A DNA stretch of 48,006 nucleotides. Source: a virus (Duplodnaviria > Heunggongvirae > Uroviricota > Caudoviricetes). The stretch's first letter is position 1, and every line of letters starts with the position of its first letter. The notes below the pieces were generated by a model that saw nothing but the letters and a program-made list of their open reading frames with translations, had not been told where the DNA came from and did not search any database. Positions 28,712 to 48,006 of this stretch are shown here, in pieces. The stretch lies in the IMG/VR virus record IMGVR_UViG_2913147268_000002, one strand, 5' to 3'. The position numbers and the translations under genes are program-made.

Positions 28712-29278
28712 ATGGCAAGTCAGGCTGAGGTTGCAGCACATTTACTGCTATCTGATCGTCGTCTGCGCGATCTCGCAAAACTTCCGGGAGCACCAGTCCC
28801 ACAAGGACGTGGTGATTGGGAGCTAGACGCATGGCGCCATTTTTATATTCGTTATCTCCGGAGCAATAGACGCGACACAACTAGTAATGACGAACCGGAA
28901 GCGGGGGACAATTCTCCCGAAAAAAATCGCGAGCAGTGGCTGAAAAATGAGGAACGACAGGAGCGAATCCTGATGGCACGAGTAAAACGCCGCATTCTCG
29001 CTAAACGCTACGCGCCAATTGAATTAATTAGCGTCGCTGTATCTCGCGTCGCCGTTGAATTACGTACCCGCGTCGAGTCGTGGCCACCACGCCTGAAAAA
29101 GGTCTGGCCGGAGATGCCGCAAGAGGCGAGCAGTGTATTACGAGAGGAGCTGGCGATAGCCTTAAATGAGTTGTCAGACATACGAATCGACTTCAGCGAT
29201 TACGATGTCAGCGATATCGAACGCGATCTCGACAGGGTTGAATCCCTTGCGCGTGACGATACCGATGACGGGTGTTGA
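28712..29278 (+). CDS. Terminase small subunit (putative)
   Basis: 188 aa immediately upstream of and overlapping the large terminase; acidic C-terminus. Confidence 0.55.
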   Translation: MASQAEVAAHLLLSDRRLRDLAKLPGAPVPQGRGDWELDAWRHFYIRYLRSNRRDTTSNDEPEAGDNSPEKNREQWLKNEERQERILMARVKRRILAKRYAPIELISVAVSRVAVELRTRVESWPPRLKKVWPEMPQEASSVLREELAIALNELSDIRIDFSDYDVSDIERDLDRVESLARDDTDDGC

Positions 29279-31127
29279 GTGGGCTGATAAATATTTTTAT
29301 CTCCCTGAGGGCTCCAGCCACATCGCTGGGCACTGGACGACTCAGCCGGTCCAGGTAGTGATGCTCAATATGATGACGAACGACGCGATAAAAATCGTGT
29401 CTGTTCGCAAATCAGCTCGTCTCGGTTATACAAAAATACTCGTCGCGGCGCTGCTCTATTTCGCTGAGCACAAAAAACGTAGTGCCGTGGTCTATCAGCC
29501 TATCGATGACGAATCGGATGGATTTGTCGCCGACGAGGTTGACCCCGCTATCGCCGAAATGCCAGTGATTCAGAAAATTTTCCCCGACTGGGATAAAAGC
29601 AACGAGCGTAACAATCTCCAGCGTAAAGAAATGAGCGGCGCGATTCTTGATTTTCGCGGCGCGAGTGCACCAGGAAATTTCCGGCGACTAACGAAACAGG
29701 TTGTCGAGGGTGACGAAGTTGACGGCTGGCCGCTGGAAGTTGCCAAAAAAGGCAAAGGCGAGGGCTCGCCCATCGAACTGGCGCTCGTTCGAATTAAAGG
29801 GGCAGCGTACCCGAAGGCGATTTTTGGTTCGACGCCGACCGTTACCGGCAAAAGTCATATCGAAATGCTCGAAGACGCTGCCGATCTGACGTTTCGTTTT
29901 TACCTGACATGTCCGCATTGTGGCGAGGAGCAGGTCCTGGTATTTGGTTTCGACGGTATCGAATACGGCCTCAAATGGGATAACAGCCTGCAGACCAATG
30001 AGGCGAAATCGTCGTCCGCGTATTACCAGTGCTGCCACTGCCCGGAACATTTTTACTATCGCGATCTCGAAAAAATGGAGTTCGGGGGGCGCTGGATAGC
30101 CGAGGACTGCACCTGGACCCGAGACGGCATTCATTTTTTTGATCATGACGGTGGCGTCGTTCGCGCGCCGAAACACGCTGCGATCGTGATAAACGCCCTG
30201 TATTCACTAAACCTCGATGGATGGGGCGAGATTGTCAGCGAGTGGCTGAAAGCGAAAGGCGACCCGCTCAAGGAAAAGACGTTTCATAACACGACGCTCG
30301 GCGAACTCTGGAGCGACGTGGCCAGCGAGCAGCTGGAGCACGATATTCTGGTTAATCGCCGGGAAAAATACGCCAGCCAGGTTCCTGACGGTGTTGTTTA
30401 TATAACCGGCGGCATCGACTCTCAGACGTCCGGGCGCTACGAGTGTTATGTGTGGGGCTGGGGAGCCGAGGAGGAGTGCTGGCTGATTGATAAAACAATC
30501 GTCCTCGGTCGCTACGACGAGGAGGACACGCTGCAGCGCGTCGACGGAGTGATTCGCAAACAATACCGGCGCAGCGACGGGACCACAATCGGCGTCAGTC
30601 GCTGGGCGTGGGATACCGGTGGTATAGATGCGCAGGTCGTTTATAACCGCTCGCTGAAACTCGGTCCGCTGTGGGTCATTCCAATCAAGGGCGCGAGCTC
30701 ATACGGCCAGCCGGTCGTAAATATGCCTCGTACCCGTAACGCGAATAAAGTGTATTTGTCGTTGATTGGGACAGATACAGCGAAAGACCTGCTCGCAATG
30801 CGCCTGCAGCTGGAACCCGACTCCAAATCGGCGACACCAGGTGCGATTCATTTTCCCAACGACGACGAAATATTCAGCACGACAGAGGCAAAACAGCTCG
30901 TCTCCGAGGTTCTGATCCCGAAACTCATTAACGGTCGCGTCGTTTATCGTTGGGACAACCAGGGCCGGCGAAATGAGGCGCTCGACTGCTGGGTGTACGG
31001 ACTGGCAGCGCTGCGTATCAGTAAAATTCGTTTCCAGCTCAATCTCGAGACGCTCGCTGAGCAACGGAAAAAATCACAAAACAAACTGTCTCTCGAGGAG
31101 ATGGCCAGAATGCTCGGAGGGAGCTAA
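29166..31127 (+). CDS. Terminase large subunit (lambda gpA-like)
   Basis: VEWADKYFYLPEGSSH, CPHCGEEQ, GIDSQ and KGASSYGQPV align with lambda gpA landmarks; start ambiguous (29166, 29205 or 29262). Confidence 0.9.
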   Translation: MSCQTYESTSAITMSAISNAISTGLNPLRVTIPMTGVEWADKYFYLPEGSSHIAGHWTTQPVQVVMLNMMTNDAIKIVSVRKSARLGYTKILVAALLYFAEHKKRSAVVYQPIDDESDGFVADEVDPAIAEMPVIQKIFPDWDKSNERNNLQRKEMSGAILDFRGASAPGNFRRLTKQVVEGDEVDGWPLEVAKKGKGEGSPIELALVRIKGAAYPKAIFGSTPTVTGKSHIEMLEDAADLTFRFYLTCPHCGEEQVLVFGFDGIEYGLKWDNSLQTNEAKSSSAYYQCCHCPEHFYYRDLEKMEFGGRWIAEDCTWTRDGIHFFDHDGGVVRAPKHAAIVINALYSLNLDGWGEIVSEWLKAKGDPLKEKTFHNTTLGELWSDVASEQLEHDILVNRREKYASQVPDGVVYITGGIDSQTSGRYECYVWGWGAEEECWLIDKTIVLGRYDEEDTLQRVDGVIRKQYRRSDGTTIGVSRWAWDTGGIDAQVVYNRSLKLGPLWVIPIKGASSYGQPVVNMPRTRNANKVYLSLIGTDTAKDLLAMRLQLEPDSKSATPGAIHFPNDDEIFSTTEAKQLVSEVLIPKLINGRVVYRWDNQGRRNEALDCWVYGLAALRISKIRFQLNLETLAEQRKKSQNKLSLEEMARMLGGS

Positions 31128-31360
31128 TGACGTCGCGCGAGGTTTTAACAGAACGACTGCTGGAAGCGGAAATCGCTCTGCACAAATTATTAACGGGTAA
31201 ATCGACCGTGTCGCTGTCTCACGGCGATTCAGCAGGAAATAACCGGAGCTATCAATACTCGCAGGCGAGTATTGAGCAGCTCCGAACGTACATTATCGAG
31301 CTGAAATCACAGCTCGGTCTGAGTACGGGACGCCGTCGGCCCGTGGGAGTTCGATTATGA
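31127..31360 (+). CDS. Head-tail joining protein gpW-like
   Basis: 77 aa; pattern resembles lambda gpW; RBS GGAGGGAG. Confidence 0.7.
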   Translation: MTSREVLTERLLEAEIALHKLLTGKSTVSLSHGDSAGNNRSYQYSQASIEQLRTYIIELKSQLGLSTGRRRPVGVRL

Positions 31361-46745: not shown

Positions 46746-46958
46746 ATGATTACATACACTACACGGGACGGTGACCGTCTCGATCAGATCTGCCTTGCGG
46801 TCTACGGGAGAGCGTCAAAAACGACAGAGACTGTTTTATATCAGGTTTCGAATTACGGCGTAACGGATATGTGTGCCGTGTTTCGTGCTGGAGAAAAAAT
46901 TGTTTTACCAGATATCGAACCAGAGCCGGTTAAAAAAGAAACGCAATTATGGGATTGA
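46746..46958 (+). CDS. Tail protein X (P2 gpX-like, LysM-like)
   Basis: MITYTTRDGDRLDQICLAVYGR...VLPDIEP parallels P2 gpX. Confidence 0.65.
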   Translation: MITYTTRDGDRLDQICLAVYGRASKTTETVLYQVSNYGVTDMCAVFRAGEKIVLPDIEPEPVKKETQLWD

Positions 46959-46961
46959 TGA

Positions 46962-48006
46962 ATGAGTGATTACGTAAATACTGGCGTGGAGGCGTGGAAA
47001 CCTAATTTTTATATATCTGCTGATAATAAAAACATCACGGATAAAATAAGAAAAGGTTTGATCAATATCACGCTGACAGATTACGGCGGCTCCAGTAAAC
47101 AGACAGACGAACTCCGCGTAGCAATAGTTTCTGAAACTCTGAAAATTCCGGCCCGCGGAGTAAAAATCAGTATTGGGCTCGGTTTCGGTAATCAGATAAT
47201 TGATAAAGGGATATACATCGTTGACGGTGCTAGCAGTGGCGGTGAACCCCGGGTAGTTGATTTCACAGCAAAAGCGGCTCCGATGAACGCAGCAAAAGGA
47301 TCTCCGACAGTTCAGAGCAAAAAGACTCGTTCCTGGAGCGACGTCACTGTCAGCGATATCGTTGCGACAATAGCGAGCGATAATGGGCTAAAACCACGCG
47401 TATCAAAGCGGTTTGCAGACAATGTTATCACGCAACTCGATCAGGTCGGCGAGTCAGATATGCACCTGATGTCGCGGCTCGCAACGAGATTCGATGCGGT
47501 GAGTAAACCCGCGGGCGGGTACTGGATATTCCTGCCGCGCGGCGCGGGCGAATCTGTTAGCGGTGCTCCGCTCCAGCACTACACGCTAACTCGTCGTGAT
47601 AACTCCAGCTGGGGCTATTCGAGAAATGGACAAAGTGGCGATAGTGGTAGCGGTGGCGAAAATCCGGAACCGACGTATCTGATTAAATATCACGACACAG
47701 CAACTGGGCAGATCAAAGAATTGCGGACAAGGTAGTGGCGGCGATCCTGTCATTGAATGGCCGGCAGTTGAGCCGTCGCTCGACGCAGCGAAAGAAGCTG
47801 CACCAGGGCTCAAGGGCGGTGCAGCTAAAAAAGAGTTCTCTATGACGTACACGACGCCAGCGACGCTCGATTTAGTGTCGCTGACAGCAGAATGCAAAGT
47901 CACAACTCAAGGTTTCGGGACCGAGGAGGACCGGGACTGGACTATCAACACACTGAGTCTGACGCTCGCTGAAAACGGTTTTTCGGTTCGGCTGTCTCTG
48001 GAGTAA
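46962..48006 (+). pseudogene. Tail protein D (P2 gpD-like) with apparent +1 frameshift near 47700-47740
   Basis: N-terminal 257 aa in frame 0 end at a stop (47733-47735). The +1 frame is open from 47683 to the TAA at 48004-48006 and ends DRDWTINTLSLTLAENGFSVRLSLE, resembling the P2 gpD C-terminus. Either a real frameshift or a sequence error. Confidence 0.6.

Follow-up and report, generated by a model that had tools for sequence, protein, structure and literature searches.

In phage lambda the late genes lie downstream of the Q antiterminator and the lysis genes and run in the order Nu1-A-W-B-C-D-E-FI-FII-Z-U, followed by V-G-T-H-M-L-K-I-J. Phage P2 has four Ogr-activated operons instead, with X after L in the head operon and with R and S after the lysis genes, and the R2 pyocin of Pseudomonas aeruginosa (PA0615-PA0628) is a bacteriocin that lacks the head, portal, terminase and neck (W, FII and a gpZ-class protein). 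Here we analyse a virus sequence of 48,006 nucleotides (IMG/VR record IMGVR_UViG_2913147268_000002, hereafter the window), whose positions 28712-48006 very probably form the single late operon of a lambdoid temperate prophage, from an old lineage that combines a lambda-type head with a P2/pyocin-type tail, and in which the hub gene D is truncated. An earlier note on this DNA had read the region as a lambda-like head module joined to a P2-like contractile tail module. The architecture is already known in isolated phages and in many prophages, and the element itself is common and has already been sequenced.

The closest isolated phage that we found is Vibrio phage Vb_VaM_Valp1 (OR500391), which shows the identical head-neck-tail order from the terminase small subunit (TerS) through D: genes for a lambda-type protease and capsid, separated by a gene of decoration-protein size, then FII, a gpZ-class gene, the terminator and V...U-X-D. 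Its identity with the window proteins is spread evenly over head, neck and tail (28-60%), with 60% for the terminase large subunit (TerL), 48% for the portal, 34% for E, 30% for FII, 35% for the gpZ-class protein, 28% for the terminator, 41% for the sheath, 45% for U and 40% for D; TerS is 45% identical and the tape measure is 35% identical to the Valp1 protein at the T position. Valp1 differs in its host, in extra baseplate genes including one for a PAAR protein and in having its own fibre, and in the head core it is further from the window than lambda is.

The head genes of the window are the following (percentages are amino acid identities).

28712-29278, + strand: TerS, 188 aa (phrog_57, E 3e-39, full length)
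29265-31127, + strand: TerL, gpA family (Pfam GpA_ATPase 3e-46, GpA_nuclease 6e-64; 43% to lambda A)
31127-31360, + strand: gpW head-tail adaptor (Pfam gpW 6e-16; 35% to lambda W)
31357-32931, + strand: portal of the lambda family, gpB (Pfam Phage_portal_2 8e-91; 64% to lambda B)
32931-34238, + strand: S49 prohead protease/scaffold, gpC-like (Pfam Peptidase_S49 2e-37; 56% to lambda C)
34238-34567, + strand: head decoration protein, gpD-like (Pfam HDPD 4e-7; 40% to lambda D)
34586-34605, + strand: terminator-like hairpin and T run between the decoration and capsid genes (consensus scan)
34626-35660, + strand: major capsid protein, gpE-like (Pfam Phage_cap_E 1.5e-59; 56% to lambda E)
35695-36114, + strand: FI DNA-packaging chaperone (Pfam Packaging_FI 1e-8, phrog_92; 32% to lambda FI)
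36111-36491, + strand: FII head closure/head-tail attachment protein (Pfam Phage_attach 3e-11; phrog_82 Hc1)

The gene order is that of lambda, and the Pfam families of A, W, B, C, D, E, FI and FII are shared with it; all seven of the families gpW, portal, S49 protease, D, E, FI and FII score above the gathering threshold in lambda order. The lambda order claimed by the earlier note is thus borne out by Pfam and BLASTP, but the strong similarity that it added is not, since the identities are moderate (32-64%). TerS gives no Pfam Nu1 match and reaches lambda Nu1 by BLASTP only at E 0.03, and it is therefore not assigned to the Nu1 family; FII has no BLAST match to lambda FII and is recognized by profile only. 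The internal start of lambda Nu3 is not conserved, its Met being aligned to an Ile (ATT) at codon 236 of gene C (window position 33636), and the only in-frame start candidates near that position (residues 200-275) are GTG codons at residues 206 and 258. At the DNA level, the match to lambda-like phages is limited to about 150 nt of the portal gene. These results indicate that the head belongs to the lambda family without being a close copy of lambda. A second terminator-like GC hairpin with a T run lies just after E (35659-35676, + strand); the two hairpins flanking the capsid gene presumably serve as sites of Q read-through or as mRNA-stability elements.

The tail genes follow on the same strand.

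37717-38619, + strand: baseplate spike V (Pfam Phage_base_V; 35% to P2 V; PDB 3qr8, P2 gpV, 1e-17)
38622-38963, + strand: baseplate wedge W, gp25-like (Pfam GPW_gp25; 37% to P2 W)
38960-39880, + strand: baseplate J (Pfam Baseplate_J; 41% to P2 J)
39883-40509, + strand: baseplate I (Pfam Tail_P2_I 3e-37; 34% to P2 I)
40502-41686, + strand: tail fibre with an H-like N-terminus and an unrelated distal part (Pfam Phage_tail_fib N-terminal domain)
41686-42075, + strand: fibre-associated protein of 129 aa, orf129, at the position of P2 G (phrog_1795 and phrog_1141, "tail fiber protein")
42072-43574, + strand: tail sheath, 500 aa (Pfam sheath domains; 36% to P2 FI; PDB PA0622 6e-49)
43592-44104, + strand: tail tube (Pfam Phage_tube; 31% to P2 FII)
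44117-44529, + strand: tail assembly chaperone E (44117-44398) with its -1 extension E' (Pfam Phage_TAC_7)
44507-46147, + strand: tape measure, 546 aa (by position; phrog_3654, 2e-262)
46150-46572, + strand: gpU, homologue of the pyocin "ripcord" PA0626 (Pfam Phage_P2_GpU 3e-31; PDB PA0626 1e-14; 35% to P2 U)
46746-46958, + strand: gpX, LysM-like, homologue of the pyocin "glue" PA0627 (Pfam Phage_tail_X; PDB 2ltf and PA0627; 40% to P2 X)
46962-48006, + strand: baseplate hub gene D, disrupted (sub-threshold Phage_GPD; 30% to P2 D; alignment with an intact allele of 347 aa)

All members of the P2-type tail set (V-W-J-I, fibre H, sheath, tube, U, X and D) are present, D being frameshifted. The assignment of these genes to the P2 family of contractile tails by the earlier note therefore stands: Pfam finds the genes from V to X other than orf129 and the tape measure, with D only sub-threshold, and BLASTP identity to P2 is 30-41% for V, W, J, I, H, FI, FII, U, X and D. 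For H the similarity is confined to the N-terminus (32% over 115 aa). As in P2, the baseplate genes precede sheath and tube, and an E-family chaperone has a -1 extension overlapping T. The strict P2 order that had been claimed is not kept, because X lies between U and D, not behind L; in addition, the terminator lies directly before V. One uninterrupted operon is found here, as opposed to the four of P2, and P2 head genes, R, S, G and ogr are absent from the element; orf129 has no Pfam match and no match to P2 G, so that it is not a detectable G homologue, and no ogr gene is annotated after D in genomes with the identical sequence. E and T give no BLASTP match to P2, and the tape measure, which belongs to no Pfam family, is shorter than that of P2 (815 aa). 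The sheath is about 100 aa longer than in P2 (396 aa; 386 aa in the R2 pyocin), and its homology spans residues ~154-492, which points to an additional domain of about 100 aa, either N-terminal or inserted. Compared with the related TUM11353 prophage, the sheath is also the least conserved of the long tail genes (77%, against 94-99% for its neighbours).

The -1 reading frame of E' is open from 44359 to 44529, overlaps the start of T (44507) and has been kept in each of the relatives that we examined, and the E' peptide belongs to no Pfam family. A GGTAAAG heptamer at the start of this frame is kept in the subclade of the window while its flanks vary; more distant relatives have TTTTTTG, which is the P2 site, or GGGTTTT. 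The candidate shift site thus appears to be the non-canonical G GTA AAG at 44365-44371.

It is also evident that the R2 pyocin cluster fits the tail better than P2 itself does, being collinear from collar through baseplate, sheath, tube, chaperone, tape measure, U and X to hub. PDB matches to PA0615, PA0622, PA0626, PA0627 and the hub chain of 6u5h fall in the relative order of the pyocin genes, which shows that the gene order is that of the R2 cluster. The locus is nevertheless not an R-type tailocin in the sense of a tail cluster without capsid, portal and packaging genes: a full lambda-type set of head and terminase genes is contiguous with the tail, and a complete phage genome surrounds it. 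Nor does the element belong to the P2 family. A recent cryo-EM preprint on P2 (2026) quotes a definition of Peduoviridae by six shared orthologues (the large and small terminase subunits P and M, the portal Q, the scaffold O, the capsid N and the capsid completion protein L), and P2 Q, P, O, N, M and L have no tblastn match at E <= 1e-3 in the whole window, which places the element outside Peduoviridae.

Between head and tail lie a short spacer and two neck genes.

36488-36513, strand not assigned: intergenic hairpin, stem GTGGGAC/GTCCCAC, between FII and the next gene (sequence and scan)
36523-37203, + strand: tail completion protein of the gpZ/HK97 gp10 class (Neck1), 226 aa, orf226 (phrog_27, "tail completion or Neck1")
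37200-37736, + strand: tail (sheath/tube) terminator of the R2-pyocin collar PA0615 family, 178 aa (profile against PDB 6u5f)

These two open reading frames (ORFs) had been labelled R/S-like, but neither resembles P2 R or S by BLAST, tblastn or hhalign, and the label is positional only; they also lack BLAST similarity to lambda Z and U. In the family of the 226-aa protein, 5 of 30 aligned members reach Pfam Minor_tail_Z (best E 2e-12), and with moderate confidence we take this protein as a putative gpZ-class tail completion protein. The 178-aa protein belongs to no Pfam family. A profile built from 41 homologues matches the collar PA0615 over its full length (PDB 6u5f, E 1e-29), and Foldseek searches with its AlphaFold2 model (pLDDT 89) return the pyocin collar and the monocin cap, together with the Mu terminator and lambda gpU. 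Profile and model together identify it as the tail terminator. In P2, according to the same preprint, gpR is a hexameric tail terminator homologous to tailocin caps, and the neck consists of Q-L-R. The 178-aa protein is the functional counterpart of gpR, yet its sequence family is that of the pyocin collar; this myovirus/pyocin-collar type also sets it apart from gpU of lambda. With W, FII, the gpZ-class protein and the terminator, the neck is of the lambda/Mu type and not of the P2 type, and through FII, the gpZ-class gene and the terminator, which stand after FII as Z and U do, the order stays collinear with lambda FII-Z-U.

The element extends upstream of this operon as well.

6270-6326, strand not assigned: attL, attachment-site repeat of 57 bp (blastn of the window against loci L002 and L001)
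25918-26589, + strand: Q antiterminator gene, upstream of the lysis genes and the late operon (RefSeq and GenBank annotation of the identical sequence)

In Escherichia coli ST131 genomes the prophage lies between leuZ and yecA with the 57-bp repeat at either end, the second exact copy being located about 875 bp past the window end, just before yecA. The repeat is likely the att core of the prophage, and the window accordingly ends at gene D and does not reach attR. For the identical sequence in ST131, RefSeq annotates, upstream of the late operon, one integrase, genes of the repressor region, a replicative helicase, Q, holins and an endolysin. The parts of a lambdoid temperate phage (integrase and att, repressor region, replication, Q, lysis and then the virion operon) are thus all present, by annotation only. 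Throughout 28712-48006 all candidate genes are on the + strand with stops and starts that overlap or nearly abut, and no intergenic gap precedes V or the sheath gene. Such continuity bears on the possibility that two unrelated elements merely adjoin here, a lambda-like head remnant on one side and a P2-like prophage or R-type tailocin cluster on the other. The collinearity of the tail block with the R2 cluster from collar to hub, the broken D gene and the remnants of another lambdoid prophage at the left end of the window could all be read in this way. However, same-strand genes with coupled stops and starts run across the junction (36491/36523 and 37200-37203), one pair of 57-bp repeats lies around the entire element, which has a single integrase, there is only one set each of head, lysis and regulatory genes, and head, neck and tail are linked in 23 independent loci as well as in the isolated phage Valp1. 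We consider two adjoining elements highly improbable.

With the gpZ-class alignment 85 loci were fetched, and a scan of genome contigs with the same alignment returned only 5 loci. Where enough downstream DNA was available, V/W/J/I followed in the same order in 73 of 74 loci. The upstream side is less constant: a lambda-E capsid gene was found in 25 of the 64 loci with enough upstream DNA and was missing from the other 39, among which 36 still have a gpA terminase. Both a lambda-E capsid gene and P2-type baseplate genes are carried by 23 loci. Because V/W/J/I are constant while the head varies, the gpZ-class gene goes with the tail, the head being the partner that changes. Phages of the Jilinvirus/Iiscvirinae group (Arya, ep3, ECO1230-10 and HeidiAbel) and one of the fetched loci, L037, likewise have the gpZ-class gene and a P2-type tail (25-44% identity for Arya); the PA0615-type terminator is shared by L037 as well (63%) but cannot be detected in Arya. 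Their heads differ from that of the window in lacking the S49 protease, D and E. In Arya one long "major head protein" is annotated and nothing matches C, D or E of the window, whereas the L037 head is of the phage-21/Gifsy type, with a DUF1441 TerS, gpA, a lambda-family portal, a ClpP protease-capsid fusion and a cement protein (both by Pfam) and FII. Different heads with a shared neck and tail show that the tail and neck are exchanged as a cassette between head types.

The L037 tail shares 76% DNA identity with the window, and the homology begins at 36411, inside the 3' end of FII and about 27 codons before its stop, so that these last codons are part of a block shared with tails on other head types. 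GC content at third codon positions (GC3) is 0.54-0.65 from TerL to FII and 0.34-0.53 from orf226 on, the step falling between FII (0.60) and the next gene (0.47). The point of exchange is accordingly placed by sequence comparison at 36411, inside FII, and the right edge of the interval 36100-36520, where the earlier note had put the join, does mark a real recombination boundary. The interval itself is neither a gap nor a boundary sequence: it consists of the FII gene, which had not been named, and a spacer of 31 bp. This spacer holds the hairpin, then the ribosome-binding site AAGGGGGAA, and the GTG start follows at 36523. The hairpin is kept in TUM11353 but for one loop base, and L037 has an unrelated GC hairpin with a T8 run at the same position. 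The view of a lambda-family head and a P2-family tail within one co-directional operon is upheld, while the module boundary cannot be called clear in terms of gene families. A second boundary is visible after E in the comparison with another locus, L010, where the portal (78%) and E (67%) are close to the window and FI, FII and the neck genes share only 33-43%. In L037 the gpZ-class gene (10001-10680) reads as an ORF of 132 aa, yet the tblastn match spans all 226 residues, so that either a frameshift or a sequencing error is suspected in this record.

The GC3 step at about 36.5 kb and the L037 exchange point at 36411 would also be expected if a lambda-like and a P2-like phage had recombined recently with a crossover in a non-coding boundary at 36100-36520. 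Against such an event, the tail is only 30-41% identical to P2 with no DNA match to it, P2 R, S, G and ogr are lacking, the neck genes are neither those of lambda nor those of P2, the interval in question is coding (FII), and the same architecture occurs in the Vibrio phage and in Photobacterium and Marinomonas prophages with heads and tails evenly diverged. A recent cross between lambda and P2 relatives thus has very little probability, and the sequence evidence favours an old lineage in which heads and tails have been swapped at the neck.

If the region is indeed one late operon of this lineage, a single Q-antiterminated transcript would run through the lysis, head, neck and tail genes. The gpA-type terminase would package DNA into a gpE capsid decorated with gpD, and the portal would be closed by gpW and FII. 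The contractile tail would be built separately on a baseplate of hub D, spike V, wedge W-J-I and fibre, using the tube, the sheath, the tape measure and the chaperones E and E+E', the latter made through a -1 frameshift, and would be capped by a hexamer of the PA0615-type terminator and by the gpZ-class completion protein. The head would join the tail by docking of FII on the terminator, and crossovers between heads and tails within the lineage would fall inside the 3' end of FII. Several points weigh against this reading. Q-dependent read-through of the internal hairpins, the position of the E/E' shift site and the contact between FII and the terminator are assumed rather than shown. The element is known here from sequence alone, and the GenBank "phage" records with the same sequence are fragments of 20-27 kb. 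Furthermore, the B-C-E block is nearer to lambda (56-64%) than to Valp1 (34-48%), whereas TerL is nearer to Valp1 (60% versus 43%); these mixed affinities suggest that the head itself is mosaic and that inheritance of whole modules by descent is only approximate.

The last ~27 codons of FII, the gpZ-class gene and the PA0615-type terminator might together constitute a portable docking cassette, by which one contractile tail serves different heads of the lambda supergroup. The heads concerned would be the lambda D/E type found here and the phage-21/Gifsy ClpP-capsid type of L037, and the crossover in FII would mark the surface that contacts the tail. We offer this only tentatively, as a proposal that is rather doubtful at present; if true, it would provide a defined swappable interface for chimeric phages or for placing heads on tailocins.

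In gene D an extra A at 47729/47730 leads to a stop at 47733-47735, leaving a hub of 257 aa instead of the 347 aa of the intact TUM11353 allele, and the rest of the gene, in another frame up to 48006, is a remnant of 54 aa. Removal of one A restores 347 aa with 97.7% identity to the intact allele. At least 1000 contigs carry the truncated 257-aa allele, and 840 the intact one; the frameshift is a fixed mutation of the lineage and not a sequencing error. Conservation of the lost C-terminal 90 aa extends over the intact E. coli allele, Valp1 D and P2 D, and D is the central baseplate hub in the P2 cryo-EM preprint. Because its hub gene is truncated, this copy can probably not assemble functional tails. 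A fully functional inducible myovirus would require that D be recoded, that the 257-aa fragment suffice or that another prophage complement it. The other structural genes are indeed intact and 77-99% identical to those of the D-intact relative (orf129 excepted, at 46%), the truncated allele is stably kept on those many contigs, and GenBank records under this sequence label the source as a myovirus phage. But clonal descent explains the stability of the allele in ST131, the extra A does not lie in a slippery context, the truncation removes a conserved part of the central hub, and an extra tail-fibre gene that follows D in the intact relative is also absent from ST131. We therefore regard a functional phage as unlikely. 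A programmed frameshift in D was considered and rejected, given the single extra A relative to intact alleles and the non-slippery context. The 139-aa ORF downstream of D in ST131 was likewise rejected as a remnant of the extra fibre gene, since it shows no similarity to it.

The window sequence is 100% identical to GenBank ON470624 ("Escherichia phage vB_EcoM-705R4"), and 449 of 5426 complete E. coli genomes carry the same sequence on the chromosome; many of these genomes belong to ST131. About 8% of complete E. coli genomes thus have the prophage, which is typical of ST131, a pandemic clone. In our literature search no paper describing those GenBank phage records was found, and no description of this prophage as a hybrid of lambda head and P2 tail; the EC958 genome paper does not discuss this prophage, and the sole paper found to name vB_EcoM-705R4 is about CRISPR spacers. 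The main value of the present analysis is a correct annotation as a lambdoid myovirus with a broken hub gene and with a tail that is a phage relative of the R-type pyocins, an annotation relevant to studies of prophage induction and of phage-derived particles in ST131. Current understanding is left unchanged by a textbook example of phage mosaicism, in which the exchange lies at the neck, inside FII, and the gpZ-class protein goes with the tail; of the by-products, the neck assignments, the exchange point in FII and the D frameshift are the most useful.

Between U and X lies a gap of 170 bp (46572-46746) with a terminator-like hairpin on the minus strand (46603-46579). In the TUM11353 prophage a minus-strand gene for a "superinfection immunity protein" is located between U and X, so that the gap looks like an insertion site for morons.

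At the left end, window positions 1-6269 (minus strand) carry pieces of another lambdoid prophage and not the leuZ flank of the ST131 references. These pieces comprise the C-terminal receptor-binding part of gpJ, lom, tail-fibre fragments and a DNA methylase fragment, and the junction at this end is covered by no complete E. coli genome. The leuZ region of ST131 was rejected as the left flank, because ARAGORN finds no tRNA in the window and the blastn match begins only at 6270.

In the early region, isrK, a C4 antisense RNA and its a1/b1 target score above the Rfam gathering thresholds at 17519-17716 (+ strand), directly followed by a gene with an ORF6N domain (antirepressor-like; 17720-18556, + strand). 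By sequence, 17519-18556 is a predicted antisense-RNA immunity module of the P1/P7 or Gifsy style.

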